Source: a virus
Lineage: Duplodnaviria; Heunggongvirae; Uroviricota; Caudoviricetes
Virus record (IMG/VR): IMGVR_UViG_2563366969_000002
DNA length: 42,012 bases
Strand: one strand, 5' to 3'
The notes under the pieces were generated by a model. That model was not told the DNA's origin. It did no database searches and saw only the letters and a list, made by a program, of their open reading frames with translations. The translations under genes and the position numbers were made by a program. Positions 1-42,012 of the stretch are shown one piece after another. The number at the start of each line of letters is the position of its first letter. Position 1 is the stretch's first letter.

Positions 1-1074
1 TCATTTGTCGATTTCAATTTTGTCCCATTCCCGTCCACGGCTGTCCCTATACCGCGCCGCCATTGAATATGATTTATGCCCGAGAAGACGTTGAGCAAAC
101 TTATCGCCAATCTGGTTCCGGTATAGCCTCGCTGACAGGCTACGCAGTTCATGGAATGTTGGCGGGTCTCCATCAAATGAGAGTCCAGATGCATTTCTCG
201 CCTTTGTAAAATACTTCGATACTGTTTTAGGGGAAAGCGGATCGTGATGCTTTGATGCGATTATAGTTTCACTGCCGCTGGCCTCCCTGCATTTCTGTAG
301 TGTATCAGCCAATGAGATATTGAGCGCGTCAATCGTTAGCGTTAGCGGAATGGCGAGCTTAGCCCCTGTTTTACTCTGTTCAATGTGAAGATGGTTGTCG
401 TTTATGTCTGACCATTTCATTCTGCACAAATCGCCCACTCTCTGCCCTGTAACGACCGCCAAATCCATTGCCAGCCTCAGCCAGATTGGGAGAGGTTCGG
501 CTGCATGGTAAATCGCGACATACTCATTAGCTGTCAGCCTTGAGCGCCTTACTTCTGACTTTGCTGTACGGGTTGCTGTTACCGGATTCGTTGCCACATG
601 CCCCTCGGCTATTGCTTCACGAAAAACGTCAACAAGGGTTGACCTGATTAATTTTGCGGAAGCTGCTTTACCTTCTGCTACGTAGGTGTTTAGCATTGCT
701 GCCACTTCTTTCGTTGATATGTCAGTGAGCGGTTTGTCCGGCAATTTTCTTCGGATTGCCCTGATTTTGCTGGCGTAGTCGAGTAGAGTTTTCGGCCTGA
801 TCCCCCTTTCGGTGAGGATTCTTTCATATCGGTCAAGCCACACATGAAGAGTGATTGCGTCACCGCCTTTAATTCTGTCTATCAGTGATTTGCGTCCGCT
901 GTCTGAGAGTAACTCAATATTGGCCTGTATTGCTTCAGTAATTGCTATCCTCCTGTCTCTGCCTAATCCGAACTCTTTACCCGTCCTTGGGTCCCTGTAG
1001 CAGTAATATCCATTGTTTCTTATATAAAGATTAGGGGGTAAATCCCGGCGCTCATGACTTCGCCTTCTTCCCAT
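1..1074 (-). CDS. int: Tyrosine integrase, lambda Int family
   Basis: 357-aa ORF; N-terminal arm-binding region MGRRRSHERRDLPPNLYIRNNGYYCYRDPRTGKEFGLGRDRRIAITEAIQANIEL and C-terminal catalytic region (HELRSLSARLY...LLGHKS...) match recalled lambda Int; central part diverged. Stop codon is at pos 1-3, so the gene is complete and the att site is outside the window. Confidence 0.95.
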   Translation of the reverse strand: MGRRRSHERRDLPPNLYIRNNGYYCYRDPRTGKEFGLGRDRRIAITEAIQANIELLSDSGRKSLIDRIKGGDAITLHVWLDRYERILTERGIRPKTLLDYASKIRAIRRKLPDKPLTDISTKEVAAMLNTYVAEGKAASAKLIRSTLVDVFREAIAEGHVATNPVTATRTAKSEVRRSRLTANEYVAIYHAAEPLPIWLRLAMDLAVVTGQRVGDLCRMKWSDINDNHLHIEQSKTGAKLAIPLTLTIDALNISLADTLQKCREASGSETIIASKHHDPLSPKTVSKYFTKARNASGLSFDGDPPTFHELRSLSARLYRNQIGDKFAQRLLGHKSYSMAARYRDSRGREWDKIEIDK

Positions 1075-1270
1075 TTTTGATCCTCTTCAAAAGGCTACCT
1101 GTTACTGGTCGATTTAAGTCAACCTTTACCGCTGATTCGTGGAACAGATACTCTCTTCCATCCTTAACCGGAGGAGGGAATATCCTGCACTCGCGTACCC
1201 ATCGACGAACTGTTTCAAGGCTTCTTGGGCGTCGCTGGCGTGCGTTCCACTCCTGAAGTGTCAAGTACAT
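1052..1270 (-). CDS. xis: Excisionase
   Basis: 72-aa ORF MYLTLQEWNARQRRPRSLETVRRWVRECRIFPPP... matches recalled lambda Xis; overlaps int start as in lambda. Confidence 0.9.
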   Translation of the reverse strand: MYLTLQEWNARQRRPRSLETVRRWVRECRIFPPPVKDGREYLFHESAVKVDLNRPVTGSLLKRIKNGKKAKS

Positions 1271-1383
1271 CGCAAAGTCTCCGCAATTACACGCAAGAAA
1301 AAACCGCCATCAGGCGGCTTGGTGTTCTTTCAGTTCTTCAATTCGAATATTGGTTACATTGTTTTCATATATGAATAAATAAA

Positions 1384-1563
1384 TTAGCTTTTTTCGTTGC
1401 CTTCGCGTTCTTTATTAATTTTGACAAACTTGTTTTTACCACGCTCTCCAAATGCGTCTTTAGAGTCGTTGTATCCGCAATCGCAGCACACATAATCACC
1501 AGACCATCCACGCATTGTTTTTTCTTTTGCAATATTTCCAGAACCGCATTTTGGACAAGACAT
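1384..1563 (-). CDS. Small zinc-ribbon protein (ea8.5 position)
   Basis: 59-aa ORF from ATG with GGAGG 7 nt upstream; CPKCG...(x)...CCDCG four-cysteine motif; AT-rich. Function unknown. Confidence 0.5.
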   Translation of the reverse strand: MSCPKCGSGNIAKEKTMRGWSGDYVCCDCGYNDSKDAFGERGKNKFVKINKEREGNEKS

Positions 1564-1659
1564 ATCACTACCTCCAAAGCATGAGTGAGATGACAACGTA
1601 ACATTGATTGGAGATTAACAATAGATTGCTGATGTAAAAGATATGTATAAGCTTCGCTT

Positions 1660-2313
1660 TCAAAGTGGAGGCTCTGGTAGCGGCATCCAGTGAGTTACGT
1701 CATCCAAGATATTTCCTGATAAATACGTGAAAGCTCTATATTTTTTGTAATCAATTGGATTTACAACCCAGTTCCAATATGCGGCCACGATTTCACCTTG
1801 ACTAAATGCCAGTAACATTTTGGTGTCTTCCGGCATTCGATCACTACAGCTTATCCAACCACCCGGAGTTACCGGAGAGTTGCCGCGTTCTTTAATGTGC
1901 AAGCGAGGCTCACCATCTTTTGGTTCAGGCCACTGGCGTTCCATGTTGATCTTCAATTTATTTTCCATAGCAGCGGTAATTTCAGCATCACTGATACCAG
2001 CACGGCGCTGTGCATCCCACAACAGAAACTGCATATCAGCCCACTCGCTAAGATCGTCTGGTTCGGCTGCGGCTTCCAGTGCCTCTTTTGAGAGATGTTT
2101 CAGCGGACCAATGGGGCCAACGCAGCCAAATGTGGAGTCAGACCATTTGGCATGCTCGTGGCGAATCTGTTCGCGTTCCAGTGAGGCGAGAGCGATTTTA
2201 AATGCTGTAAGCATGTGTGCTTGATCGTTGTCGAGTCCGAATGGCATTTCATCTCGTGCTGACTCAATACTGGTAATCGTATTTTGTAGCCATTCTTTGG
2301 TAAAAGTGCTCAT
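1660..2313 (-). CDS. Hypothetical protein, DUF550/DUF551-like (ea22 region)
   Basis: 217-aa ORF; C-terminal ...YLSGNILDDVTHWMPLPEPP resembles recalled DUF551 phage proteins. Family assignment from memory only. Confidence 0.55.
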   Translation of the reverse strand: MSTFTKEWLQNTITSIESARDEMPFGLDNDQAHMLTAFKIALASLEREQIRHEHAKWSDSTFGCVGPIGPLKHLSKEALEAAAEPDDLSEWADMQFLLWDAQRRAGISDAEITAAMENKLKINMERQWPEPKDGEPRLHIKERGNSPVTPGGWISCSDRMPEDTKMLLAFSQGEIVAAYWNWVVNPIDYKKYRAFTYLSGNILDDVTHWMPLPEPPL

Positions 2314-2681
2314 CGTAAAATATCCTCTATACTGGTAAGTCCTTCATTATTTAGCCAGATCATGGCGTCATCCGGCAACTTGCTGTCTGGTTTGGCGTTT
2401 TTGAGAGAGGAACTCAGTCGCTTAATCCACATTGTCACCTCAGTAATGCGCCTGTCTTTGCCTTCCAGCTCAACACGCAGCTTCCCTACCGTTAGCGCAA
2501 TATCCTCGTTCTCCTGGTCGCGGCGTTTGATGTATTGCTGGTTTCTTTCCCGTTCATCCAGCAGTTCCAGCACAATCGATGGTGTTACCAATTCATGGAA
2601 AAGGTCTGCGTCAAATCCCCAGTCGTCATGCATTGCCTGCTCTGCCGCTTCACGCAGTGCCTGAGAGTTAATTTCGCTCAC
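2310..2681 (-). CDS. Ead/Ea22-like protein
   Basis: 123-aa ORF starting MSEINSQALREAAEQAMHDDWGFDADLFHELVTPSIV..., typical N-terminus of Ea22-like proteins of E. coli lambdoid prophages (recalled). Confidence 0.6.
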   Translation of the reverse strand: MSEINSQALREAAEQAMHDDWGFDADLFHELVTPSIVLELLDERERNQQYIKRRDQENEDIALTVGKLRVELEGKDRRITEVTMWIKRLSSSLKNAKPDSKLPDDAMIWLNNEGLTSIEDILR

Positions 2682-2899
2682 TTCGAACCTCTCTGTTTAC
2701 TGATAAGCTCCAGATCTTCCTGGCAACTTGCACAAGTCCGACAACCCTGAACGGCCAAGCGTCTTCGTTCATCTATCGGATCGCCACACTCACAACAATG
2801 AGTGGCAGATATAGCCTGGTGGTTCAGGCGGCACATTTTTATTGCTGTGTTGCGCTGTAATTCTTCAATTTCTGATGCTGAATCAATGATGTCTGCCAT
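2678..2899 (-). CDS. TraR/DksA-type C4 zinc-finger protein
   Basis: 73-aa ORF with CxxC-x17-CxxC (CCECGDPIDERRRLAVQGCRTCASC). Confidence 0.7.
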   Translation of the reverse strand: MADIIDSASEIEELQRNTAIKMCRLNHQAISATHCCECGDPIDERRRLAVQGCRTCASCQEDLELISKQRGSK

Positions 2900-2997
2900 C
2901 TTTCATTAATCCCTGAATTGTTGGTTAATACGCTTGAGGGTGAATGCGAATAATAAAAAAGGAGCCTGTAGCTCCATGATGATTTTGTTTTTCATGC

Positions 2998-3279
2998 TCA
3001 CCGTTCCTTAAAGACGCCGTTTAACATGCCGATCGCCAGGCTTAAATGAGTCGGTGTGAATCCCATCAGCGTTACCGTTTCGCGGTGCTTCTTCAGTACG
3101 CTACGGCAAATGTCATCGACGTTTTTATCCGGAAACTGCTGTCTGGCTTTTTTGATTTCAGAATTAGCCTGACGGGCAATGCTGCGAAGGGCGTTTTCCT
3201 GCTGAGGTGTCACTGAACAAGCCCCATGTCGGCAAGCATAAGCACACAGAATATGAAGCCCGCAGCCAGAAAAATGCAT
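2998..3279 (-). CDS. Hypothetical protein (orf60a position)
   Basis: 93-aa ORF in early-left operon; no recognised family; start uncertain. Confidence 0.35.
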   Translation of the reverse strand: MHFSGCGLHILCAYACRHGACSVTPQQENALRSIARQANSEIKKARQQFPDKNVDDICRSVLKKHRETVTLMGFTPTHLSLAIGMLNGVFKER

Positions 3280-3289
3280 TCAGTGGTTG

Positions 3290-3481
3290 TCATACCTGGT
3301 CTCTCTCATCTGCTTCTGCTTTCGCCACCATCATTTCCAGTTTTTGTGAAAGGGATGTGGCTAACGTATGAAATTCTTTGTCTGTTTCTACTGGTATTGG
3401 CACAAACCTGATTCCAATTTGAGCGAGGCTATGTGCCATCTCGATACTCGTTCTTAACTCAACGGGAGATGCTTTGTGCAT
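3290..3481 (-). CDS. Lambda orf63-like protein
   Basis: 63-aa [37 protein letters not shown]... matches recalled lambda orf63. Confidence 0.6.
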   Translation of the reverse strand: MHKASPVELRTSIEMAHSLAQIGIRFVPIPVETDKEFHTLATSLSQKLEMMVAKAEADERDQV

Positions 3482-3642
3482 ACCGCCTCCCGTTTATTAT
3501 TTATCTTCTCAGCCAGCCGCTGTGCTTTCAGTGGATTTCTGATAACAGAAAGGCCGGGAAATACCCAGCCTCGCTTTGTAACGGAGTAGACGAAAGTGAT
3601 CGCACCTACCCGGATATTATCGTGAGGATGCTTCATCGCCAT
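3454..3642 (-). CDS. Lambda orf61-like protein
   Basis: 62-aa [48 protein letters not shown]... matches recalled lambda orf61. Confidence 0.6.
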
Positions 3643-4313
3643 TGCTCCCCAAATACAAAACCAATTTCAGCCAGTGCCTCGTCCATTTTTTCGATGAACT
3701 CCGGCACCATCTCGTCAAAACTCGCCATGTAATTTTCATCCCGCTCAACCACGACATAATGCAGGCCTTCACGCTTCATCCGCGGGTCATAGTTGGCAAA
3801 GTACCAGGCATCTTTTCGCGTCACCCACATGCTGTACTGCACCTGGGCCATGTAAGCCGACTTTATGGCCTCGAAACCACCGAGCCGGAATTTCATGAAA
3901 TCCCGGGAGGTAAACGGGCATTTCAGTTCAAGGCCGTTGCCGTCACTGCATAAACCATCGGGAGAGCAGGCGGTGCGCATACTTTCGTCGCGATAGATGA
4001 TCGGGGATTCAGTAACATTCACGCCGGAAGTGAATTCAAACAGAGTTCTGGCGTCGTTCTCGTACTGTTTTCCCCAGGCCAGTGCTTTAGCGTTAACTTC
4101 CGGAGCCACACCGGTGCAAACCTCGGCAAGCAGGGTGTGGAAGTAGGACATTTTCATGTCAGGCCACTTTTTTCCGGAGCGGGGTTTTGCTATCACATTG
4201 TGAACTTCTGAAGCGGTGATGACGCCGAGCCGTAATTTGTGCCACGCATCATCTCCCTGCTCGATAGCTCTCACGTCGATCCCGGTACGCTGCAGGATAA
4301 TGTCCGGTGTCAT
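3633..4313 (-). CDS. exo: Lambda exonuclease (Red alpha)
   Basis: 226-aa [65 protein letters not shown]... matches recalled lambda Exo. Confidence 0.95.
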
Positions 4314-5095
4314 GCTGCCACCTTCTGTTCAGTGGCTTTTTGTTTCAGGAATCCAAGAGCTTTCACTGCTTCGTCCTGTGTCAGTTCTGACGATGAACGA
4401 ATGTCGCGGCGAAATATCTGGGAACAGAGCGGCAATAAGTCGTCATCCCATGTTTTATCCAGGGCGATCAGCAGAGTGTTAATCTCCTGCATGGTTTCAT
4501 CGTTAACCGGAGTGATGTCGCGTTCCGGCTGACGTTCTGCAGTGTATGCGGTATTTTCGACAATGCGCTCGGCTTCATCCTTGTCATAGATACCAGTAAA
4601 TCCGAAGGACAGACGGGCACACTGAATCATGGCTTTATGCCGTAACATCCGTTTGGGATGCGACTGCCACGGTCCGGTGATTTCTCTGCCTTCGCGGGTT
4701 TTGAATGGTTCGCGGCGGCATTCATCCATCCACTCGGTAACGCAGATCGGATGATTGCGGTCTTTGCGGTAAATCCGGCATGTGCAGGATTCGTTGTCCT
4801 GTTCAAAGTCCATGCCATCAAACTGCTGGTTTTCGTTGATGATGCGGGACCAGCCATCAACGCCCACCACCGGAACGATGCCGTTCTGCTTATCAGGGAA
4901 GGCGTAAATTTCTTTCGTCCACGGATTAAGGCCGTATTGGTTGGCGACGATCAGCAATGCGATGAACTGCGCATCGCTGGCATCGCCTTTAAATGCTGTC
5001 TGGCGAAGAGTGGTGATCAGTTCCTGTGGGTCGACAGAATCCATGCCGACACGTTCAGCCAGCTTCCCAGCCAGCGTTGCGAGTGCTGTACTCAT
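4310..5095 (-). CDS. bet: Recombinase Beta (Red beta)
   Basis: 261-aa [62 protein letters not shown]... matches recalled lambda Bet; overlaps exo start. Confidence 0.95.
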
Positions 5096-5100
5096 CCGTT

Positions 5101-5397
5101 TTATACCTCTGAATCAATATCAACCTGGTGGTGAGCAATGGTTTCAACCATGTACCGGATGTGTTCTGCCATGCGCTCCTGAAACTCAACATCGTCATCA
5201 AACGCACGGGTAATGGCTTTTTTGCTGGCCCCGTGACGTTGCAAATGATCGATGCAGAGCGATTCAAACAAATGCTGGGGCAGACCCTTTTCCAGGTCGT
5301 CTGCCAGTTCTGCCTCTTTCTCTTCACGGGCGATCTGCTGGTAGTGACGCGCCCAGCTCTGAGCCTCAAGACGATCCTGAATGTAATAAGCGTTCAT
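5101..5397 (-). CDS. gam: Gam (RecBCD inhibitor), 98-aa form
   Basis: [60 protein letters not shown]... matches recalled lambda GamS. Confidence 0.9.
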
Positions 5398-5472
5398 GGC
5401 TGAACTCCTGAAAATGGCTGTGAAAATAGCGCCCGCGAAATGCCAGGCTGATTAGGAAAACAGGAAAGGGGG

Positions 5473-5616
5473 TTAGTGAATGCTTTTGCTTGATCTCAGT
5501 TTCAGTATTAATATCCATTTTTTATAAGCGTCGACGGCCTCACGAAACATCTTTTCATCGCCAATAAAAGTGGCGATAGTGAATTTAGTCTGGATAGCCA
5601 TAAGTGTTTGATCCAT
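5473..5616 (-). CDS. kil: Kil (host-killing, FtsZ inhibitor)
   Basis: 47-aa reading frame [47 protein letters not shown] matches recalled lambda Kil; internal start within a longer listed ORF. Confidence 0.75.
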
Positions 5617-5749
5617 TTTTTGGGACTCCTGGCTGATTAAGTATGTCGATAAGGCGTTTCCATCCGTCACGTAATTTACGGGTGATTCGTTCAAGTAAAG
5701 ATTCGGAAGGGCAGCCAGCAACAGGCCACCCTGCAATGGCATATTGCAT
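5585..5749 (-). CDS. cIII: cIII (protects cII from FtsH)
   Basis: Hand translation gives [54 protein letters not shown], matching recalled lambda cIII (54 aa); below the ORF-track size cutoff. Confidence 0.75.
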   Translation of the reverse strand: MQYAIAGWPVAGCPSESLLERITRKLRDGWKRLIDILNQPGVPKNGSNTYGYPD

Positions 5750-5821
5750 GGTGTGCTCCTTATTTATACATAACGAAAAACGCCTCGAGTGAAGCGTTAT
5801 TGGTATGCGGTAACGCCGCGC

Positions 5822-6190
5822 TCAGGCGGCTTTGATAGTCATATCATCTGAATCAAATATTCCTGATGTATCGATATCGGTAATTCTTATTCCTTCGCTA
5901 CCATCCATTGGAGGCCATCCTTCCTGACCATTTCCATCATTCCAGTCGAACTCACACACAACACCATATGCATTTAAGTCGCTTGAAATTGCTATAAGCA
6001 GAGCATGTTGCGCCAGCATGATTAATACAGCATTTAATACAGAGCCGTGTTTATTGAGTCGGTATTCAGAGTCTGACCAGAAATTATTAATCTGGTGAAG
6101 TTTTTCCTCTGTCATTACGTCATGGTCGATTTCAATTTCTATTGATGCTTTCCAGTCGTAATCAATGATGTATTTTTTGATGTTTGACAT
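5822..6190 (-). CDS. ea10: Ea10 protein
   Basis: 122-aa ORF MSNIKKYIIDYDWKASIEIEIDHDVMTEEKLHQINNFWSDSEYRL... at the lambda ea10 position and length. Confidence 0.8.
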   Translation of the reverse strand: MSNIKKYIIDYDWKASIEIEIDHDVMTEEKLHQINNFWSDSEYRLNKHGSVLNAVLIMLAQHALLIAISSDLNAYGVVCEFDWNDGNGQEGWPPMDGSEGIRITDIDTSGIFDSDDMTIKAA

Positions 6191-6210
6191 CTGTTCATAT
6201 CCTCATAGAT

Positions 6211-6236
6211 AAAAAATCGCCCTCACACTGGAGGGC
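6211..6236 (-). terminator. Intrinsic terminator-like hairpin in leftward operon
   Basis: GCCCTC-loop-GAGGGC stem, followed by a T-run when read on the minus strand (A-run 6211-6216 on plus). Confidence 0.45.
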
Positions 6237-6393
6237 AAAGAAGATTTCCAATAATCAGAACAAGTCGGCTCCTGTTTAGTTACGAGCGACATTGCTCCGT
6301 GTATTCACTCGTTGGAATGAATACACAGTGCAGTGTTTATTCTGTTATTTATGCCAAAAATAAAGGCCACTATCAGGCAGCTTTGTTGTTCTG

Positions 6394-6573
6394 TTAACCA
6401 AGTTCTCTGGCAATCATTGCCGTCGTTCGTATTGCCCATTTATCGACATATTTCCCATCTTCCATTACAGGAAACATTTCTTCAGGCTTAACCATGCATT
6501 CCGATTGCAGCTTGCATCCATTGCATCGCTTGAATTGTCCACACCATTGATTCTTATCAATAGTCGTAGTCAT
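6394..6573 (-). CDS. ral: Ral (restriction alleviation), 59-aa variant
   Basis: Hand translation MTTTIDKNQWCGQFKRCNGCKLQSECMVKPEEMFPVMEDGKYVDKWAIRTTAMIARELG* matches recalled lambda Ral but ends about 7 residues early. Confidence 0.7.
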   Translation of the reverse strand: MTTTIDKNQWCGQFKRCNGCKLQSECMVKPEEMFPVMEDGKYVDKWAIRTTAMIARELG

Positions 6574-6767
6574 ACGGATAGTCCTGGTACTGTTCCATTA
6601 CATCCTGCGGATGCTCTTCGAACTCTTCAAATTCTTCTTCCATATATCACCTTAAATAGTGGATTGCGGTAGTAAAGATTGTGCCTGTCTTTTAACCACA
6701 TCAGGCTCGGTGGTTCTCGTGTACCCCTACAGCGAGAAATCGGATAAACTATTACAACCCCTACAGT

Positions 6768-7322
6768 TTGATGAGTATAGAAATGGATCCACTCGTTATT
6801 CTCGGACGAGTGTTCAGTAATGAACCTCTGGAGAGAACCATGTATATGATCGTTATCTGGGTTGGACTTCTGCTTTTAAGCCCAGATAACTGGCCTGAAT
6901 ATGTTAATGAGAGAATCGGTATTCCTCATGTGTGGCATGTTTTCGTCTTTGCTCTTGCATTTTCGCTAGCAATTAATGTGCATCGATTATCAGCTATTGC
7001 CAGCGCCAGATATAAGCGATTTAAGCTAAGAAAACGCATTAAGATGCAAAACGATAAAGTGCGATCGGTAATTCAAAACCTTACAGAAGAGCAATCTATG
7101 GTTTTGTGCGCAGCCCTTAATGAAGGCAGGAAGTATGTGGTTACATCAAAACAATTCCCATACATTAGTGAGTTGATTGAGCTTGGTGTGTTGAACAAAA
7201 CTTTTTCCCGATGGAACGGGAAGCATATATTATTCCCTATTGAGGATATTTACTGGACTGAATTAGTTGCCAGCTATGATCCATATAATATTGAGATAAA
7301 GCCAAGGCCAATATCTAAGTAA
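6768..7322 (+). CDS. sieB: Superinfection exclusion protein B-like membrane protein
   Basis: 184-aa ORF with two hydrophobic segments (MYMIVIWVGLLLLSP, VWHVFVFALAFSLAINV), between ral and N, convergent with N as recalled for lambda sieB. Confidence 0.65.
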   Translation: MMSIEMDPLVILGRVFSNEPLERTMYMIVIWVGLLLLSPDNWPEYVNERIGIPHVWHVFVFALAFSLAINVHRLSAIASARYKRFKLRKRIKMQNDKVRSVIQNLTEEQSMVLCAALNEGRKYVVTSKQFPYISELIELGVLNKTFSRWNGKHILFPIEDIYWTELVASYDPYNIEIKPRPISK

Positions 7323-7646
7323 CTAGGTAAGAGGAATCGATTTTCCCTTAATTTTCTGGCGTCCACTGCATGTTATGCCGCGTTCGCCAGGCTTGCTGTA
7401 CCATGTGCGCTGATTCTTGCGCTCAATACGTTGCAGGTTGCTTTCAATCTGTTCGTGGTATTCAGCCAGCACTGTAAGGTCTATCGGATTCAGTGCGCTT
7501 TCTACTCGTGATTTCGGTTTGCGATTCAGCGAGAGAATAGGGCGGTTAACTGGTTTTGCGCTTACCCCAACCAACAGGGGATTTGCTGCTTTCCATTGAG
7601 CCTGTTTCTCTGCGCGACGTTCGCGGCGGCGTGTTTGTGCATCCAT
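7323..7646 (-). CDS. N: Antiterminator N
   Basis: MDAQTRRRERRAEKQAQWKAANPLLVGVSAKPVNRPILSLNRKPKSRVESALNPIDLTVLAEYH... matches recalled lambda N; AGGAGA RBS upstream of the internal ATG at 7646. Confidence 0.9.
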   Translation of the reverse strand: MDAQTRRRERRAEKQAQWKAANPLLVGVSAKPVNRPILSLNRKPKSRVESALNPIDLTVLAEYHEQIESNLQRIERKNQRTWYSKPGERGITCSGRQKIKGKSIPLT

Positions 7647-7756
7647 CTGGATTCTCCTGTCAGTTAGCTTTGAGTAACGCGCCGTGATGCTTATCCCCAC
7701 GGTTGCTGTCTTGCAGCTGCATTTCGCGCTACTCAAAGCTTTCTGCTTTGAATGCT

Positions 7757-7771
7757 GCCCTTCTTCAGGGC
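7757..7771 (-). promoter_or_regulatory. nutL boxB hairpin
   Basis: Minus-strand GCCCTGAAGAAGGGC, identical to recalled lambda boxB, between pL and N. Confidence 0.8.
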
Positions 7772-7829
7772 TAAATTTTTAAGAGCCTCACCTTCAATGG
7801 TGGTTAGTGCGTCCTGCTGACGAGCTAAG

Positions 7830-7890
7830 TATCACCGCTAGTGGTATTTGTGTCAACACCGCTAGAGATATTTTATCACCGCAAATGGTT
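7830..7890. promoter_or_regulatory. oL operators / pL promoter
   Basis: Three 17-bp sites TATCACCGCTAGTGGTA, CAACACCGCTAGAGATA, TATCACCGCAAATGGTT, near-identical to recalled lambda OL1-OL3. Confidence 0.85.
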
Positions 7891-8050
7891 ATCTGTATGT
7901 TTTTTATATGGATTTATTTTTTCGAGTGAGTGTATTGCCTCGGCGATGTAAGGAGAGATCAGAATTGCGTTGTTTAGTGAGTTGTATCTATTTATTTTCC
8001 AATAAATACAATTGGTTATGTGTTTTTAGGTGGGGCGATCGTGAGGCAAA

Positions 8051-8078
8051 GAAAACCCGGCGCTGAGGCCGGGCTTTT
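8051..8078 (-). terminator. Intrinsic terminator after the cI-downstream gene
   Basis: CCCGGCGCTGAGGCCGGG stem flanked by A-run (8051-8055) and T-run (8074-8078); terminates leftward transcripts from pRM. Confidence 0.55.
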
Positions 8079-8095
8079 AGGGCGGGTTGATGCTC

Positions 8096-9133: not shown

Positions 9134-9155
9134 ATCTTTTCTCAATGTTATTGTG

Positions 9156-9872
<717 letters not shown>

Positions 9873-9879
9873 TTAAATC

Positions 9880-9943
9880 TATCACCGCAAGGGATAAATA
9901 TCTAACACCGTGCGTGTTGACTGTTTTACCTCTAGCGGTGATA
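9880..9943. promoter_or_regulatory. oR operators / pRM-pR
   Basis: TATCACCGCAAGGGATA, TAACACCGTGCGTGTTG, TACCTCTAGCGGTGATA match recalled lambda OR3, OR2, OR1 (OR1 one mismatch). Confidence 0.85.
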
Positions 9944-9960
9944 ATAATTGCATGTACTAA

Positions 9961-10170
<210 letters not shown>

Positions 10171-10288
10171 ATAACACCGCTCTTACACATCACAGCCCTG
10201 AAAAAGGGCATCCAATTAAACCACACCTATGGTGTATGCATTTATTTGCATACATTCAATCAATTGTTATCTAAGGAAATACTTACAT

Positions 10289-10582: not shown

Positions 10583-10614
10583 GGTCATTACTGGATCTAT
10601 CAACAGGAGTCATT

Positions 10615-14049: not shown

Positions 14050-14086
14050 TGTGGCGTTGTTCCTTTCACTGTCGTGACAGATCTGC

Positions 14087-28150: not shown

Positions 28151-28158
28151 GGATCCTC

Positions 28159-32411: not shown

Positions 32412-32471
32412 TGAAAAATTAATCTGTTAATGAGTCCCACTCCGGTGGGATTTTTTATGTACGGAGTTTAT

Positions 32472-33800: not shown

Positions 33801-34876
33801 ACGACAATGTCACGCTACGGGTAAATGGCCGGGAGTGGAATGGCTGGACATCGGTGCGCATCGGTGCCGGTATTGAACGGCTGGCGCGGGATTTCAGTGT
33901 GGAGATCACCCGCCAGTGGCCGGGAGATGAGGGTATCACCACGCTTCAGCCGCGCATTAAAAACGGTTCAAAAGTGGAAGTGCTGATTGGTGATGAGCTG
34001 GTGATCACCGGCTGGGTGGAGGCGACGCCCGTTCGTTACGATGCCCGTTCGGTCAGCACCGGTATTGCCGGACGTAGTCTGACGGCTGACCTGATTGACT
34101 GTGCAGCCGAACCGACACAGTTTAACGGACGCTCGCTGGTGCAGATTGCGCAGGCGCTTGCTGCGCCTTTCGGCATTGAGGTGGTGAACAGCGGTGCGCC
34201 GTCGGGTGTTATTCCTGACGTCCAGCCTGATCACGGTGAAACGGTGATTGAGGTAATCAACAAAATACTCGGTCAGCAGCAGGCACTGGCTTACGACGAC
34301 CCGTACGGCAGGCTGGTGATTGGCGGTATTGGCTCAACGCGGGCACATACCGCGCTGGTACTCGGGGAAAACATCCTTTCCTGTGATACGGAGAAGAGTA
34401 TCCGGGAGCGGTTTTCAGTTTACCAGGTGGCGGGGCAGCGTGCCGGAAACGACGATGATTTCGGTGAGGCCACCACCACCGCGCTGCGGGCCCGCACAGA
34501 GGACGCATTTATTGCCCGTTACCGTCCGATGTATATCAGGCAGACAGGGCAGGCCACGGGGGCAGGCTGTATTGCGCGTGCTGACTTTGAAGCCCGACAA
34601 CGGGCGGCGCGGACGGATGAAACCACCTATGTGGTGCAGGGCTGGCGACAGGGTAACGGTACGCTGTGGCAGCCCAACCAGCGGGTGATTGTCTTTGATC
34701 CGGTCTGTGGTTTTGACAATACCGAACTGCTTGTTTCGGAAGTCACGTTTACTCAGGACCAGAACGGCACCCTGACGGAAATCCGTGTCGGCCCACCTGA
34801 TGCTTATCTGCCTGAACCCGAAGCCCCCGGCGCGCGGAAAAAGAAAAAAGCCAGAGTACAGGAGGACCCGTTCTGA
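33797..34876 (+). CDS. Baseplate hub protein (Mu gpP-like)
   Basis: 359-aa ORF, synteny within Mu-type tail cluster. Confidence 0.75.
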   Translation: MNDNVTLRVNGREWNGWTSVRIGAGIERLARDFSVEITRQWPGDEGITTLQPRIKNGSKVEVLIGDELVITGWVEATPVRYDARSVSTGIAGRSLTADLIDCAAEPTQFNGRSLVQIAQALAAPFGIEVVNSGAPSGVIPDVQPDHGETVIEVINKILGQQQALAYDDPYGRLVIGGIGSTRAHTALVLGENILSCDTEKSIRERFSVYQVAGQRAGNDDDFGEATTTALRARTEDAFIARYRPMYIRQTGQATGAGCIARADFEARQRAARTDETTYVVQGWRQGNGTLWQPNQRVIVFDPVCGFDNTELLVSEVTFTQDQNGTLTEIRVGPPDAYLPEPEAPGARKKKKARVQEDPF

Positions 34877-35424
34877 TGAGGACGATTGAAGCCATGCAGC
34901 GACAACTCCTCGGCCTGATTGGGCGGGCCGTGGTGAAAAGCATCAGTGCCGCCACGAAATGTCAGACCGTGGATGTGTCCCTGATTGCCGGTGAACCCAA
35001 AGCCGGGGTTGAACATCTTGAACCCTACGGTTTTACCGCAAGGGCAAACAGCGGTGCGGAAGCGGTGGTGTTGTTTCCGGATGGCGACCGTTCTCATGCG
35101 GTGGTTGTTACGGTGTCGGACCGGCGCTACCGCCTGAAAGGGCTGCAGACGGGTGAGGTGGCTGTCTATGACGATCAGGGGCAGTCTGTGACGCTGACCC
35201 GGGAGGGGATCGTGGTGGACGGTGCAGGGAAAACGATCACGTTTCGCAATGCACCTGAAGCACGTTTTGAAATGGATCTGGAAGTGACCGGACAGGTGAA
35301 AGACCTGTGCGACTCCGGCGGCACCACCATGTCAGCGATGCGGCTTGCCTATAACGGGCATCGTCACAGAGAGAACGGTCAGGGCAGTAACACCGACAAA
35401 CCTGATAAAGCGATGGAGGCATGA
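34876..35424 (+). CDS. Baseplate spike/assembly protein V-like (Mu gp45-like)
   Basis: 182-aa ORF, synteny. Confidence 0.65.
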   Translation: MRTIEAMQRQLLGLIGRAVVKSISAATKCQTVDVSLIAGEPKAGVEHLEPYGFTARANSGAEAVVLFPDGDRSHAVVVTVSDRRYRLKGLQTGEVAVYDDQGQSVTLTREGIVVDGAGKTITFRNAPEARFEMDLEVTGQVKDLCDSGGTTMSAMRLAYNGHRHRENGQGSNTDKPDKAMEA

Positions 35425-35849
35425 TGGAACTGTGGCTGACGGTGAACGGTAAACGCACCTGCGCCAGCGCACCGCTGGATCCGCTGACCCGCGCCGTGGT
35501 GATTTCCCTGTTCACCTGGCGGCGGGCGGAGCCTGATGACAATGCCGACGTCCCGATGGGATGGTGGGGGGATACCTGGCCTGCGGTACAGAATGACCGT
35601 TACGGCTCCCGACTGTGGCTGCTTCAGCGCAGCAAACTGACCAATCAGCTGGTGCAGACGGTAAGGGGATATATCCGCGAATGCCTGCAATGGATGATTG
35701 ATGACGGCGTGGTGTCCCGTATTGATCTGGATATCCGCCGCACCGGGATTAATGAGCTGGGTAACAGTATCACCCTCTGGCGTCGTGATGGACCAGTAGT
35801 GATTTCTTTTGATGATCTGTGGAGTGCGATAACGCATGGCGGACAGTGA
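35421..35849 (+). CDS. Baseplate protein (Mu gp46 / gpW-like)
   Basis: 142-aa ORF, synteny. Confidence 0.65.
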   Translation: MMELWLTVNGKRTCASAPLDPLTRAVVISLFTWRRAEPDDNADVPMGWWGDTWPAVQNDRYGSRLWLLQRSKLTNQLVQTVRGYIRECLQWMIDDGVVSRIDLDIRRTGINELGNSITLWRRDGPVVISFDDLWSAITHGGQ

Positions 35850-36894
35850 ATTTCAGCGCCCGACGCTGGCAGAAAATATCAGTATGCTCCGTAACGATTT
35901 ATTCGCCAGGCTGGACGTCAGCGACACGCTCCGGCGCATGGATGAAGACGTGCGGGCAAAGGTGTATGCGGCGGCGCTGCATACGGTCTACGGTTACATC
36001 GATTATCTGGCAATGAATATGCTGCCTGACCTGTGCGATGAGTCCTGGCTGGCGCGACATGCTGCGATGAAACGGTGTCCGCGCAAGGGAGCCACGGTTG
36101 CCAGCGGGTATATGCGCTGGGAAGGTGTCAGCGATGGCCTGAAGGTGACTGCCGGGAGTGTTATTCAGCGCGATGACCTGGTGCAGTACACGACAACTGA
36201 CGATGCAATCAGCTCCGGTGGTGTCCTGCGCGTGCCGATCGCCTGCTCAAGTGCAGGTGCGGTCGGTAACGCTGACGACGGTACGGCATTAATCCTGGTC
36301 ACGCCGGTGAATGGTCTGCCGTCTTCCGGTGTGGCTGACACCCTGACAGGCGGATTTGATACTGAAGAGCTGGAAACGTGGCGCGCCCGCGTCATTGAGC
36401 GGTATTACTGGACGCCGCAGGGCGGGGCTGACGGGGACTATGTCGTCTGGGCTAAAGAAGTGCCCGGCATTACCCGCGCATGGACATACCGTCACTGGAT
36501 GGGAACGGGAACTGTCGGTGTGATGATTGCCAGCAGTGACCTGATTAATCCCATTCCGGAAGAATCAACGGAAACGGCGGCAAGACAACATATCGGGCCA
36601 CTGGCCCCGGTGGCAGGCTCTGATTTGTATGTGTTCAGGCCGGTGGCACATACGGTGGATTTTCATATCCGCGTGACGCCGGACACACCGGAAATACGGG
36701 CTGCCATCACCGCCGAGTTGCGTTCGTTCCTGCTGCGTGATGGTTATCCGCAGGGAGAACTGAAGGTGTCGCGTATCAGTGAGGCGATTTCCGGTGCGAA
36801 CGGGGAATACAGCCATCAGTTGCTTGCACCGGCGGACAATATCTCCATTGCAAAAAATGAACTGGCGGTACTGGGGACGATTTCATGGACGTGA
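35836..36894 (+). CDS. Baseplate J-like protein (Mu gp47-like)
   Basis: 352-aa ORF, synteny and size. Confidence 0.8.
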
Positions 36895-37469
36895 CAAACG
36901 ATGATTACATCCATCTGTTGTCGGCACTGTTGCCCCCCGGTCCGGCATGGTCAGCCAGCGATCCGGCGATTGCCGGTGCGGCACCGTCATTAACCCGCGT
37001 TCATCAGCGTGCGGATGCCCTGATGCGGGAGCTGGATCCGCGCACCACCACTGAACTGATAAACCGCTGGGAGCGTCTGTGCGGCCTGCCGGATGAATGT
37101 ATTCCTGCGGGAACGCAGACCCTTCGCCAGCGTCAGCAACGGCTGGATGCGAAGGTTAATCTGGCGGGCGGCATCAATGAGGATTTTTACCTTGCACAGC
37201 TTGCTGCCCTGGGCAGACCAGACGCCACCATCACGCGATACGATAAAAGCACTTTCACCTGCTCATCTGCCTGTACTGACGCGGTGAATGCGCCGGAATG
37301 GCGGTATTACTGGCAGGTCAACATGCCAGCCGCCACCAACACCACCTGGATGACATGTGGCGATCCCTGTGATTCCGCACTGCGTATCTGGGGCGACACC
37401 GTTGTCGAGTGTGTGCTTAACAAACTCTGCCCTTCGCATACCTACGTAATTTTTAAATATCCGGAGTAA
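36885..37469 (+). CDS. Tail protein (Mu gp48-like)
   Basis: 194-aa ORF between baseplate J and tail fibre. Confidence 0.65.
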
Positions 37470-37472
37470 TCC

Positions 37473-38117
37473 ATGCATCGTATAGACACGAAAACCGCGC
37501 AGAAGGATAAGTTCGGCGCGGGTAAGAACGGTTTTACCCGTGGTAACCCCCAGACCGGCACGCCTGCCACCGATCTGGATGATGACTACTTTGACATGTT
37601 GCAGGAAGAACTCTGCAGCGTGGTGGAGGCATCCGGTGCCAGCCTGGAGAAGGGGCGGCATGACCAGCTGCTTACCGCACTTCGCGCGCTGCTGTTAAGC
37701 CGCAAAAATCCGTTTGGCGATATCAAAGCGGATGGCACGGTGAAAACGGCTCTCGAAAACCTTGGTTTGGGAGAAGCGGCAAAACGGAATGTGGGAACAG
37801 GTTCAGGTCAGATACCGGATATGAGTAGCTTTGCATCAGCACTCTCTTCGAGTGGCTACCAGAAATTACCTTCTGGACTAATTATTCAGTGGGGGGCGGC
37901 TGTTGCTGGAATTGGCAGCACTGGGGGTACAGGAAATGTAGTCTCATTCCCTGTTGCATTCCCCAGATATTGCGCCCAAATAATTACATCTTACGATAAT
38001 GGAAGCTCGTCAATCATTGCTGGTGCAGCAGGAAACCAAACTACCACTCAATTTCTTTTACGTTGTGGTGCAACCGGTGGTAGTTATAACTTCCGCTGGT
38101 TAGCCGTGGGGTATTAA
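37473..38117 (+). CDS. Tail fibre protein
   Basis: 214-aa ORF; Gly/Ser/Thr-rich C-terminal half; followed by tail fibre assembly gene. Confidence 0.75.
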
Positions 38118-38119
38118 TT

Positions 38120-38563
38120 ATGGATAACTACTATTTTTCACCTTCGACTTTGGCATTTTATCCTGAAGATCTCATGTTGTTATATGAAGCAGCAGGAACT
38201 TTACCTGATGATATTATTTCTGTGCCACATGAAATATTTGCTACTTATTCAGGAGAGCCACCACGAGGAAAAAAGCGAGGTACTACAGAAGATGGGCTGC
38301 CCACCTGGAGTAATCTGCCGCCTTTAAGTCATGAGGAAGAAGTTGAGGTTGCGGACGCCCAAAGACAGTTTCGTATTGATGAGGCGAACGACTACATGAA
38401 TAGTAAGCAATGGCCAGGTAAAGCCGCTATTGGTCGTCTGAAAGGCGAGGAACTGGCGCAATATAATTCGTGGCTGGATTATCTGGACGCACTGGAGCTG
38501 GTCGATACTTCCGGTGCGCCAGATATTGAATGGCCTACGCCTCCGGCAGTTCAGGCCAGATGA
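38120..38563 (+). CDS. tfa: Tail fibre assembly protein
   Basis: 147-aa ORF; C-terminal ...WLDYLDALELVDTSGAPDIEWPTPP matches the conserved Tfa C-terminal motif (VDTSxAPDIEWP). Confidence 0.8.
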   Translation: MDNYYFSPSTLAFYPEDLMLLYEAAGTLPDDIISVPHEIFATYSGEPPRGKKRGTTEDGLPTWSNLPPLSHEEEVEVADAQRQFRIDEANDYMNSKQWPGKAAIGRLKGEELAQYNSWLDYLDALELVDTSGAPDIEWPTPPAVQAR

Positions 38564-38864
38564 CATCCGGCGCGATGCTTGTATCTATTGCCGCCACCGC
38601 ATCAATGTAATCAAGCACAGCGTTAAGCCGAGCGGTTTCTGCCTGCGTCAATTTACGTCCGGCCTGTAATTTCAGTTGAATCAGACTGATGGAAGCCATA
38701 GCAGCATCAATCAGCGACTGGCGTGGTGACGAGAACAGTTGCATCTTACAACCGTATTTTTCTGGACAACTGTAGGATATACGGACCGGGATTTGGAAGT
38801 AGCGGCGGTAAACGAACAGGGATTTTCGATTTTTCATCATGTGTGTTCGGGTGGTTATCAGCAA
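38535..38864 (-). pseudogene. Inverted tail-fibre-assembly gene remnant (tfa')
   Basis: Minus-strand ORF whose last ~50 aa (…KLTQAETARLNAVLDYIDAVAAIDTSIAPDVIWPELPEA) carry the Tfa C-terminal motif; N-terminal part unrelated; 3' end overlaps tfa convergently. Confidence 0.45.
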
Positions 38865-39084
38865 TAACCGGCGTCGATGAAACTACAAACACTAGTATCG
38901 GTTCGCTGTTTGGTTCGGCGGAAAATAATAACACTGCTACAGGGAAGATGTCGGGATGTGCCATTCTGGTTCCATCTAACTCTTTCCAGCAGGTTGATGC
39001 AACCTTCAAAACAAGAGTGACATCAGGTTACACGAACCCTGGCGTGTATCAGTAAAAATGGGTGGGAATTACCCACCCTTACCA

Positions 39085-40734
39085 CTAGTTTACAGGGATG
39101 TTAATTATCTGAAGAGTTCCAGAAAGATCGTAAGTTCCCACCTCAATGTTTATAATATCGCCTTTGTTGATTGACTTCGCGGTCCAACTATAATCTGTTA
39201 GCTTTGTTGATTTGGGCCAGAAGTCAGTATAAACAGGTCGTTTTTCGCCTTTATAAGTAATTCTGAGATAAACTTTAGGACCCTGCTTGAAGTTATCGGA
39301 TGAAAGGTCATTATTCGTTTTAAGCACAATAAGGTCATTGCTTTTAGCAATATATATGCTTTCCAGAATAGTTTCCTTAGCTGGAATCATTGTCTTGCCA
39401 ACCTTGATTTCATTGGATTCGGGAAGCATGGAATAATCAAAAGTTGAGTTAGACTTTCTGATCCGCGAAACGCCGAAGTATTCACCATACGTATTCACCG
39501 AGTGGTACATATCAAACTTATCACCCTTCGACAGAAGTTTTGGGAAGTAAAAATCAGGGATCATGAAATCTTTTTTCCCCTGACGCTTCATTTCTGCAAT
39601 AACGCTCATGCGCACATCATTTTGCATGAATGCTGACTTATATGATTTGTACATGAAGTAATAGGACGGCGCGAAGTATGCTAACAGTATTGCAGCAAGG
39701 CCAGCAAAAAATAGCTTAATAGAAGTTCCGTGATAAGCCTGATTTAACGCAAAAGACATAGAGACAAGCATCAAAACCAGGGTTCCGTTGCCTGAGCGAG
39801 GCGGATACCCCGGAGCTGCAGCCATCATTGCTACAGAGAGAAGAGAGGCAGACAGGAACGCCGCTGAGCAAATGACCCTAGATTTCAACGTATCTTTCTC
39901 TACTGCATTCAAGCAACCCGCAAGCAGTGACACACCAATTATCAGCAGTGGTATCCATAGCATACCCATCATTTCTGGTGCGCGGCTATAAAAGTGCTCA
40001 TCAAGCCTGTCCACCATGGGTTTGTCATACCAATATGTAAAATACTTAGCTCGAGCAGCGTTCCCAGGAGATAGCACCAATATCGCATAACCAATGATGG
40101 CGCTGAATGAGTAGAAAGCAAATGAGTAGTTACGCTCTTTTTTAAGGAAATATCCAACAGCAAAGAAAATCGCTGGAGCTGCGACGGCAATAAAACCTGT
40201 ATTTTCATTTGAACATCCAGCAGCTAAGGCAAGGAGCAATGAAACAATAGACAAACTATACTTTTTATTAAAGTAATCTTTAAATATTGAAAGCAAGAAT
40301 AGGCATAGTATAACGTTGGTCCATAAGTAGTTCGCAGACCCAACCAACCAGAAGGTAGTTTGTCCTATGTTGGTATTTGATATCCAATATGTAAGGAAAA
40401 TAATTATGGATACAACAATGAACCCAGAACTCGACTGTTTATTTGTTGTGGTGTAACCGATTTTTGTTAAGCAAAATGTTAATAAAACTGGAGCCAGTGA
40501 ATTTATCGCCGCTCTGATGTAATGATTATCAATGAACAGTATAAATCCACTGATATAGTCAGCTATTACGCGCCCACTCCACGTAAAGTAGTGATTAATA
40601 TGGGATTCTAAACTTATTCCCTTCAATGCATATGCATAATCATCTGAATGCATTGGTGTATGCAATGCAATTCCAAGTGTTAATACATACATTAGAAGAT
40701 ATACAAGAGATATTTTTATCTTATCGACGTTCAT
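39085..40734 (-). CDS. Type-specific O-antigen glucosyltransferase (GtrC-like), polytopic membrane protein
   Basis: 549-aa highly hydrophobic ORF, AT-rich, directly downstream of gtrB; third gene of gtr cassette by synteny. Confidence 0.75.
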
Positions 40735-41650
40735 TTTTTATTCCTTTAATTATGTAACGTGGTCTTGATTTTACTTCGACATATATCCTGCCAATGTATT
40801 CACCAAGTACGCCAATACCTATCAACTGAATGCCACCAAGGAACAGAATAGACACAAGTAGTGATGGATAACCACGTACTGCATTACCGAATACCAGGGT
40901 GTCGAAAATCATCCAAGCTCCGTACAGAAACGATAATACAGCAACAATTAGGCCGATATAGGTCCACATGCGTAAAGGGACGGTAGAAAAGCTAGTGATA
41001 CCTTCAAGGGCAAGATTCCATAGTTTCCATCCATTGAATTTTGAATCGCCAGCAACACGCTCAGCGCGTGCATATTCCACTACATCGGTACGCCCGCCAA
41101 CCCAACTTAAAACCCCTTTCATGAAGAGATTTCTCTCAGGCATGAGCTTGATGTTCTCGACTACATCACGAGACATTAATCGAAAATCACCGACATTCTC
41201 TTCAATTTTTGGGTTGCTGATTTTGTTATGCAGTTTATAAAACCATTCGGCAGATTTTCGCTTCAAAGCGCTATCAGTTGAGCGGTCAGATCGCTTAGCC
41301 AGGACCATATCTGCTCCGCCCTGCCATTTCTCAATCAGATGAGGAATGACTTCAATCGGATCCTGAAGGTCAACATCAATTGGAATCACGGCATCGCCAG
41401 TTGCATGGTCTAACCCTGCAAACAATGCTGGTTCTTTACCAAAGTTGCGTGTAAATGACAGCGGAAAAACTAGCGGATCAGAAACAGCCAGAGCGTTAAT
41501 GATTGACTCCGTAGCGTCTTTGCTGCCGTCATTTATGAAAACAATTTCCACTTCATATGGCTTCAACTCTTCGAATTCACGTACCGTTTTATAGAAAATT
41601 GGTATCGCTTCTTCTTCATTGAAGACAGGAACGACCAGAGATATCTTCAT
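40721..41650 (-). CDS. gtrB: Bactoprenol glucosyltransferase GtrB
   Basis: 309-aa [51 protein letters not shown]... GT2-family; matches recalled GtrB. Confidence 0.92.
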
Positions 41651-42012
41651 TATTTCGCATCCCTAAAGACAATGAACTTTGAATAGACGAAACCGCACAC
41701 CAGGCTGATGGCGGAGAAGGTGACAAGAGTGACAATTGGAGGAAGTGAACATCTATCAGCAACCCACCCGACGACAACACTCAAGGTTCCCATGAATCCC
41801 ACATATAACAAGTAACGCATCGTTGTAGTCGATGCTTTGAATGTGAATTTTGCATTCGCGAAGAAGCTAAAGCTCACAGCTACTATGAAACCTGCGAAGT
41901 TTGCCAGAGCCTGATTGGTATGCGCGGCATAGATACATACACCAAAAACCACCCAGTGTATAAGTGTGTTCAGCACACCAATCGAGGTGTACTTTGCAAA
42001 TAGCTTTAACAT
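41650..42012 (-). CDS. gtrA: Flippase GtrA
   Basis: 120-aa [70 protein letters not shown]... near-identical to recalled GtrA; ATG at the last 3 nt of the window. Confidence 0.92.

Follow-up and report, generated by a model that had tools for sequence, protein, structure and literature searches.

Introduction

The Shigella phage SfI (NC_027339; grouped here with SfII, SfIV and SfV) is a mosaic in which the left half of the genome is like SfV and e14 and the right half is like lambda, including the immunity, regulation and replication modules, and it integrates at tRNA-thrW (PMC3636060). For phage HK022, attB lies between torS and torT, a position at which ~5% of E. coli genomes hold a prophage (PMC6814406). 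We have analyzed a stretch of 42,012 nucleotides from a tailed virus (IMG/VR record IMGVR_UViG_2563366969_000002), hereafter the window, which a first-pass annotation had described as a mosaic prophage with lambda immunity and early genes, an HK97-type head, a Mu-type contractile tail and a gtr cassette. The comparisons make it very probable that the window spans the genes of one prophage (~42.4 kb from core to core), which an E. coli clone carries at the HK022 site, flanked by torS and torT, and which is a tail-defective modular mosaic. As such, the element is a further member of the known SfI/SfV-like lambdoid serotype-converting myophage group and an ordinary modular prophage, distinguished by HK022-type integration, an 82-type late regulator, an unstudied GtrC, an orphan gene in place of rexAB, what looks like a recent immunity-cassette swap and a probably inactivating amber codon. 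None of these findings challenges lambdoid mosaicism as currently understood; their main use is to give the accessory loci in the window the correct framing.

The annotation had likened the element to SfV-type phages and set it apart from them by its lambda-type immunity. The likeness is borne out by a single block, 20573-37894, that aligns with SfI over 17,355 bp at 97.4% nucleotide identity (blastn), and lambda immunity is indeed present; the supposed departure from the SfV type does not hold, because the published SfI already combines both, its genome carrying lambda-type exo-bet-gam, N, rexAB, cI, cro, cII, O, P and ren. What the element shares with SfI is thus the cos-to-baseplate half, the 10-base cos, the lambdoid gene order, the lambda-type exo-bet-gam, cI-cro-cII-O-P at 97% nucleotide identity and a gtrABC operon between the fibre genes and attP. 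It differs in that SfI has a P22/SfV-type Int for tRNA-thrW, whereas the element has HK022-type Int and Xis for torS-torT; SfI keeps rexAB, whereas the element has a 345-residue membrane protein gene (orf345) there; and the element's nin-Q-holin region is 82-like, with an inserted PRTase-CE/NADAR pair and a DUF3800 gene and without tRNAs. The fibre tip and fibre assembly gene (tfa) also differ from those of SfI, as does the DUF6056-type GtrC, which is unrelated to GtrI, and the tail terminator gene, which bears an amber codon.

A single prophage with one set of modules

The window runs from the int stop codon at its left edge to the gtrA start codon at its right edge, both genes being on the minus strand, and the att sites therefore lie just outside it. 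It holds ~65 genes in classic lambdoid order, and no tRNA genes were found in it. Module kinship was drawn from blastn and tblastn and gene families from Pfam. By megablast against 50,697 phage records, the left half matched lambda and its relatives (94-96% identity over 54-59% of the query) and the right half the Shigella phages SfI and SfII (96.7% identity over 86% of the query).

This division between reference phages, together with a GC content that rises stepwise from the left arm (40-52%) to the structural genes (53-59%; the gtr genes are at 37-44%), is what two adjacent prophages or remnants, one lambda-like and one SfV-like, or an assembly chimera would leave behind. However, the window has a single copy each of int, cos, the lysis cassette and the head and tail gene set, lambda structural genes being absent, and its gene order equals that of SfI, which is a single-genome phage. 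The bor-HNH-cos and P-PRTase junctions also recur at 99.7-100% identity in the independently finished SCU-485, and the whole element lies between attL and attR of a single HK022-type site. A tandem or chimeric origin, already contradicted by the single-copy modules and the bracketing att sites, was rejected and is in our judgment wholly improbable.

Integration at torS-torT

The integration module occupies the left edge of the window:

1-1074, minus strand: int, HK022-type (Pfam Arm-DNA-bind_1 and Phage_integrase)
1052-1270, minus strand: xis (Pfam Exc)

Int is 96.1% identical in amino acids to that of HK022 and 75.4% to that of lambda, the corresponding values for Xis being 98.6% and 97.2%. 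At the DNA level, positions 1-1357 are 95.6% identical to HK022, 76.6% to lambda (blastn) and 98% to the int-xis of phage H19J and some Stx1a phages; tblastn of Int against SfI gave no match. The left junction was read in the source genome, where scaffold KB733365.1 (GCA_000352165.1) equals the window with 0 mismatches over 21.5 kb. There torS starts 139 bp past int, and the spacer between them is HK022 attL (GGTGCACTTAAGGTGAA joined to TAAGTTGTATATTT), with the core AGGTGAA 74-80 bp before window position 1 and a P' arm 96.7% identical to HK022 attP; torS was likewise the neighbor in all 10 genomic contexts shown for the exact Int. The right junction was read in three relatives that match the right arm of the window at 100%, namely SCU-485 (over 16000-42012) and two other contigs, in which the attR core (TCATCCTTTAGGTGAA joined to AAAGGTTGAGTCGC) lies 350-356 bp beyond the window end and is followed by torT. 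The arms that flank AGGTGAA in attL and attR match those of HK022 attP at 90-97%, and gtrA was beside torT in all 24 contigs read with this exact GtrC. The att sites that the annotation had left to be located in flanking sequence are thus in hand, attL beside torS in the source genome and attR beside torT in relatives. Since Int is 96.1% identical to HK022 Int and the torS junction carries HK022 attL, the specificity is HK022-type, and the element resides at torS-torT, neither at gal-bio nor at tRNA-thrW.

The annotation had called the integrase lambda-type, which would make the element an SfV-type phage with lambda's own integrase inserted at the lambda attB between gal and bio. The family assignment stands, in that Int has the lambda arm-binding domain and lambda-family architecture and Xis is 97% identical to lambda Xis; lambda specificity does not, given the 75.4% versus 96.1% identity of Int and the torS neighbor both in the source genome and in every context shown for Int. 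The torS junction in the source genome rules out the lambda attB location, and we give an insertion at gal-bio practically no credence. A tRNA-thrW location was ruled out as well by the HK022-type Int and the torS junction, the P22/SfV-type integrase with its 46-bp att core not being what was found.

The kinship with HK022 is confined to Int, Xis, the att arms around AGGTGAA and the torS-torT site. HK022 itself, a siphovirus, encodes the Nun exclusion protein and has an immunity of its own; beyond the integration module everything differs, and in the relatives of this element the HK022/lambda-type P arm is fused, ~125-155 bp from gtrA, to an SfI-like gtr promoter region upstream of that gene. 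The SfV/e14 structural cassette is now seen with a third, HK022-type integration module, which places a serotype-converting gtr operon at a chromosomal location that is new for it. Prophages at torS-torT are known to alter torCAD regulation, as HK022 lysogens do by supplying a phage promoter to torS from this position (PMC6814406). In the present element, attL puts prophage DNA immediately upstream of torS.

An amber codon in the tail terminator gene

The description as a prophage was sound, but the annotation had overlooked an internal stop in one structural gene:

27590-28150, plus strand: tail terminator gene, homologue of SfI gp11, with TAG at 27767-27769 (codon 60 of 186)

The change, W60* (TGG to TAG), is the only amino-acid difference from SfI gp11. 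In the intact SfI protein the Pfam domain Phage_tail_terminator covers residues 3-135, so that the stop falls inside the domain, and the same gene is annotated in SCU-485 as a pseudogene with an internal stop. Because the stop lies inside this conserved domain, tail completion probably fails, no infectious particles would be released in a non-suppressor host and the prophage is probably defective. A probe of 61 bases centred on the codon was compared with 5426 complete E. coli genomes; the gene segment was present in 1056 of them (about one fifth) and the exact amber allele in only six of these 1056, these being the six genomes with the identical gtr cassette.

It could be argued that the element is nonetheless a fully functional, inducible temperate myovirus in which the amber codon is tolerated, read through, suppressed, or bypassed via an in-frame GTG restart at 27794. 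In keeping with this, all other structural, lysis and regulatory genes are full length in comparison with SfI and lambda, cos is exact, the lambda regulatory sites are exact or at most one base off (five of eleven sites checked), and the immunity region is 98.6% identical to that of the isolated phage mEp332. On the other hand, the stop at codon 60 of 186 sits well within residues 3-135, a GTG restart product would lose ~40% of the protein, and the allele is confined to one clone with identical flanks, which fits vertical inheritance and not infectious spread. Amber suppressors are also rare in natural E. coli. We therefore regard a functional phage as unlikely and favor a tail-defective prophage, which would persist by vertical inheritance while carrying gtr and the defence-type genes (orf345, PRTase-CE/NADAR, DUF3800, sieB and bor/iss).

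A probable exchange of the immunity region in a single host clone

Among sister assemblies, sampled only from the 24 longest-contig blocks, nine with the exact Int agree with the source genome at 10000 of 10000 positions over the 10 kb of chromosome left of int. The prophages of these assemblies are 99.6-100% identical to the window from int to ~5479, and in SCU-485 identity resumes at 11048 and runs to the right end. Between these joints, all seven of the nine whose fetched locus reaches the region have YdaS/YdaT, an S24 repressor, a HipA_2 kinase and DUF3037 instead; within that clone only the source of the window has the lambda/mEp332 region, and its combination was found in no complete RefSeq E. 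coli genome. On the right, the joint lies in gene O, directly behind ori iteron 4, and the exact O protein, which spans the joint, occurs on a single contig, KB733365.1. This boundary in O is the classic divide between its origin-specific and P-interacting halves.

Since flank-identical sister strains carry another immunity region at the same place, the simplest reading looks like a recent swap within one clone, in which the kil-to-ori block (5479-11048) would have been replaced in situ, inside the resident prophage, by homologous recombination with a lambda/mEp332-like phage. The amber allele is common to both immunity forms, so that the prophage had probably lost its tail function before the swap took place.

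Several points weigh against this picture of a tail-dead prophage at torS-torT with a newly acquired immunity region. With its other genes intact and cos exact, the element could still be inducible and the amber codon rescued by suppression or recombination, and complementation from the common SfV/e14-like prophages could likewise make good the tail defect. The right-hand junction with attR and torT was observed in relatives identical to the right arm of the window and not in the source record, and the polarity of the swap was taken from the majority state among the sampled assemblies, not from a phylogeny.

A tail-defective prophage that has recently changed its immunity region could tentatively be seen as one in domestication, a doubtful though conceivable extension: the clone would keep a tail-dead element for GtrC modification, defence-type genes, serum resistance through Bor/Iss and HK022-style rewiring of torS, and the defective prophage would still have traded an immunity-origin cassette with a lambda/mEp332-like phage. 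If true, this would show that dead prophages are still active partners in modular phage evolution.

Lambda-like early, immunity and replication genes

The left arm of the window contains the following features:

1384-3642, minus strand: delayed-early accessory genes, identified by Pfam, as called genes in the source locus and by tblastn against lambda and mEp332; besides those on the next four lines, orf93 and the lambda orf63/orf60a homologues
1384-1563, minus strand: Eag/Lar-like open reading frame (ORF)
1660-2313, minus strand: dATP/dGTP pyrophosphohydrolase-DUF551 gene
2310-2681, minus strand: Ea22-like gene
2678-2899, minus strand: TraR/DksA zinc-finger gene
3633-5397, minus strand: exo, bet and gam (Red), 97-99% identical in amino acids to lambda, SfI and mEp332 (Pfam YqaJ, RecT, Gam)
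5473-7736, mixed strands: kil, cIII, ea10, ral, sieB (plus strand) and N, 99-100% identical in amino acids to lambda
5704-5762, minus strand: cIII thermoregulator RNA (Rfam Lambda_thermo, 88.5 bits)
7323-7646, minus strand: N
7756-7772, minus strand: nutL, exact match to lambda
7830-7890, minus strand: OL1-OL3, each one base off lambda, with the same variants in mEp332
9156-9869, minus strand: cI, seven substitutions relative to lambda
9880-9943: OR3-OR1, with OR3 and OR2 exact and one mismatch in OR1
9970-10170, plus strand: cro, 100% identical in amino acids to lambda
10194-10210: nutR, exact match to lambda
10289-10582, plus strand: cII, 100% identical in amino acids to lambda
10615-12212, plus strand: O and P, 99% and 96% identical in amino acids to lambda
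10963-11047: four ori iterons, all exact relative to lambda

The near-lambda character that the annotation had given to cI, cro, cII, N, O, P, exo, bet, gam, R, Rz and bor was confirmed for each, with protein identities of 95-100% (87% for Bor; E = 0). By blastn, identity to lambda is 97.9% over 2463-7672 (part of ea22, exo, bet, gam, kil, cIII, ea10, ral, sieB and N), 88% over 7734-8073 (PL/OL), 96.9% over 9160-12237 (cI, cro, cII, O and P; 97.0% to SfI) and 92.8% over 18366-19674 (R, Rz and bor). To the isolated phage mEp332 (PV340541), a relative of lambda, 2666-12237 is 98.6% identical in one block, with the operator variants and the gene in place of rexAB lying inside it. Rfam scans of the window, at gathering thresholds and by E value, returned the lambda cIII thermoregulator as the sole match.

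Judged by sequence, the element has a cI and cro of lambda specificity together with tripartite OL and OR. The substitutions in cI (T3A, K71N, G125S, R129K, D139G, S157Y and A174T) leave the recognition helix unaffected, and since mEp332 has an identical cI and the same operator variants, we take the region to be a natural variant of lambda immunity. At operator position 10 an identical C to T change occurs in OL1, OL2 and OR1 (OR1 at 9927-9943), and OL3 has a G to A change. Neither rexA nor rexB is present, 8073-9160 having no lambda match by blastn or tblastn.

The element thus agrees with lambda at 97-98% over exo-bet-gam-kil-cIII-N and cI-cro-cII-O-P, has lambda-type R, Rz and bor, and shares with mEp332 in particular the 345-residue gene beside cI and the operator variants. 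It departs from both in lacking the lambda head and tail genes, lambda int specificity, rexAB, ren and the lambda nin region, in having an 82-type Q and in having a virion module that codes for a contractile-tailed myovirus.

Late regulation, lysis and packaging

In contrast to the genes flanking it, the nin-Q-holin block (12238-18365) is not of lambda type. Features from the nin region to the terminase are as follows:

14556-16815, plus strand: nin region (ybcN, ninE, ybcO, rusA, ylcG), 96.2% identical in nucleotides to phage 82 (X92588)
16126-16815, plus strand: Q, 82-type late antiterminator (Pfam Phage_antiter_Q, E=1e-94)
18069-18374: holin, LydA-type (Pfam Phage_holin_3_3), not lambda S
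18361-18837: R endolysin, 95% identical in amino acids to lambda
18834-19295: Rz/Rz1, with Rz 98% identical in amino acids to lambda
19327-19620, minus strand: bor/iss lipoprotein gene, 87% identical in amino acids to lambda and 97% to mEp332
20146-20496, plus strand: HNH endonuclease (Pfam HNH)
20562-20571: cos, TGCCCGCCCC, 10 nucleotides
20622-21116, plus strand: small terminase subunit (terS), P27 family (Pfam Terminase_4)
21113-22846, plus strand: large terminase subunit (terL; Pfam TerL)

The cos is identical to the experimentally mapped cos of SfI, with flanks that align to the SfI ends, and the packaging proteins are 93-98% identical in amino acids to those of SfI.

Head, tail and fibre genes

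The structural genes follow directly:

22858-27593, plus strand: head and neck module, 93-100% identical in amino acids to SfI
Within 22858-27593: YmfR, orf66, gp6-like connector, head closure protein and Neck1/tail completion protein (Pfam Phage_connect_1, Phage_HCP; phrog_879)
23040-24281, plus strand: portal (Pfam Phage_portal)
24223-24909, plus strand: prohead protease, S78 (Pfam Peptidase_S78)
24924-26129, plus strand: major capsid protein (Pfam Phage_capsid)
Within 28159-32411, plus strand: DUF2635 protein, Mu gp38-like, 42% identical in amino acids to Mu gp38
28313-29809, plus strand: sheath, 36% identical in amino acids to Mu L
29809-30165, plus strand: tube (Pfam)
30165-30434, plus strand: tail assembly chaperone (Pfam)
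30576-32411, plus strand: tape measure (Pfam)
32430-37469, plus strand: baseplate, comprising N-like DNA circulation protein, P-like hub and homologues of gp45, gp46, gp47 and gp48 (Pfam DNA_circ_N, GpP-like, Phage_Mu_Gp45, GP46, Baseplate_J, Phage_Mu_Gp48)
37473-38117: tail fibre (Pfam Gp53-like_C), 66% identical in amino acids to SfI
38120-38563: fibre assembly protein, tfa (Pfam Caudo_TAP)
38535-38864, minus strand: inverted remnant of a second tfa, ~70 residues of the C-terminus with 36% identity to tfa

Within the block shared with SfI the structural proteins are 93-100% identical in amino acids to their SfI counterparts, with 99-100% for the contractile-tail proteins (28159-32411) and 98-100% for those of the baseplate. 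The HK97-like packaging and head genes that had been proposed are there, in the order HNH-cos-terS-terL-portal-protease-major capsid protein-connector and with the Pfam families of HK97; the large terminase, portal, protease and major capsid protein are 26-36% identical in amino acids to HK97, with Pfam scores far above the gathering cut-offs. For the major capsid protein, the BLASTP alignment to HK97 gp5 spans only residues 191-339, short of the cross-link residues K169, N356 and E363. The Mu-like tail and baseplate of the annotation are supported in a similar manner by Mu-named Pfam families collinear with Mu gp38-gp48, in the order gp38-sheath-tube-chaperone-tape measure-N-P-45-46-47-48; tblastn detected eight Mu homologues at 26-42% identity in the same order, those of the baseplate being 26-41% identical to Mu gp43-48, and the tube, chaperone and tape measure were recognized by Pfam only. 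The protein comparisons showed neither a siphovirus-type tail nor a non-HK97 head, the head being of the HK97 family and the tail of the myovirus type; a siphovirus tail was ruled out by the contractile-tail Pfam families (sheath and Mu baseplate).

As judged by these identities of only 26-36% and 26-42%, the likeness to HK97 and Mu is one of family and architecture and not close kinship. The element is without the siphovirus tail of HK97 and without the transposase of Mu, having instead site-specific integration and lambda O/P/iteron replication. Much closer are the e14-like prophages (e.g. vB_EcoM-689R6, ON470584), which share the structural module at 97.7% nucleotide identity over 16.8 kb as well as ymfR/ymfQ-type genes, but which reside at icd, lack a gtr operon, have an immunity region of their own and carry an invertible fibre segment along with a Pin-type invertase.

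DNA homology with SfI stops at 37894, inside the tail-fibre gene, and the fibre tip, tfa and the tfa remnant are unlike SfI. The remnant looks like a relic of an invertible host-range segment of the e14/Mu type; no invertase is present, and no gix/pix-like site was found near the remnant at up to six mismatches.

The gtr operon and a proposed life cycle

The predicted gtr cassette is made up of the last three genes of the window and lies between the tail genes and attP, the P arm following gtrA in relatives:

39085-40734, minus strand: gtrC, DUF6056-type (GT_STM0557_N)
40721-41650, minus strand: gtrB (Pfam Glycos_transf_2, GT2), 91% identical in amino acids to SfI
41650-42012, minus strand: gtrA (Pfam GtrA_DPMS_TM), 90% identical in amino acids to SfI

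GtrC has no match in SfI. Its best match in sequenced phages is a hypothetical protein in a Salmonella Infantis record (35%) and its best named match is epsilon34 GtrC (31%), and the exact protein occurs on ~414 E. coli contigs. No sequenced phage carries a relative of this unstudied GtrC type above 35% identity.

From the named gene families we surmise the following life cycle. CI bound to OL and OR would hold lysogeny and confer lambda-type immunity, with orf345 co-transcribed with cI as rexAB are in lambda. Upon RecA-stimulated cleavage of CI, early transcription under N, Red recombination and replication by O and P from the iterons would ensue, the 82-type Q would switch on the late operon, and HNH and terminase would cut cos and fill an HK97-type head, while the Mu-type contractile tail would be assembled without its terminator. 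The HK022-type att sites would be the substrates of Int and Xis. In the prophage state, GtrA, GtrB and GtrC would glycosylate the host O-antigen, leading to a change of serotype and blocking its use as a receptor.

Accessory genes in lambdoid slots

Three loci occupy slots typical of accessory genes:

8096-9133 (ORF to 9220), minus strand: orf345, 345-residue membrane protein, in the rexA-rexB slot directly downstream of cI
12416-13435, plus strand: PRTase-CE (Pfam, E=3e-39)
13438-14049, plus strand: NADAR (Pfam, E=6e-23)
17037-17840, minus strand: DUF3800 gene (Pfam DUF3800), 36% GC, between the 82-type Q and the holin

The candidate defence genes among these loci would, like SieB and Bor/Iss, serve the host from the prophage. 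The product of orf345 belongs to phrog_6191, a family of unknown function, and is 100% identical to the product of the mEp332 gene beside cI; no sequence match was found in Pfam, PADLOC or the PDB. The family is tiny and enterobacterial, with 11 clusters in 5.8 billion proteins (E. coli, Yersinia and Morganella). An exact 40-mer of the gene had no match in GTDB species-representative genomes, and exact look-up of a 374-residue form found it only on contigs of at most 2 kb. The protein has one hydrophobic helix, and its AlphaFold model, at a modest predicted local distance difference test (pLDDT) score of 65, gave weak OB-fold-like matches of the C-terminus in Foldseek against the PDB (E ~4e-3). 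Presumably transcribed with cI, orf345 is a candidate exclusion or abortive-infection gene.

The PRTase-CE/NADAR insert lies between P and the nin genes, in the ren/ninA slot. It is absent from lambda, SfI and mEp332 by tblastn, no copy was found among sequenced phages at the megablast level, and PADLOC gave weak matches to PRTase_III-A and PDC-M42C. It has the same two-gene layout as DS-32, a validated E. coli anti-phage system from DefensePredictor, with a span of 1634 versus 1633 bp; the likeness is architectural only, and for DS-32 the DefensePredictor supplement gives accessions other than those of the SCU-485 PRTase-CE and NADAR proteins.

In Stx phages, toxin genes occupy the slot that separates Q from the lysis genes. 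In the element it is filled by the DUF3800 gene, with which the Rfam scans placed no associated RNA motif, and whose product matches the PADLOC candidate family PDC-M04A (E=6.5e-35).

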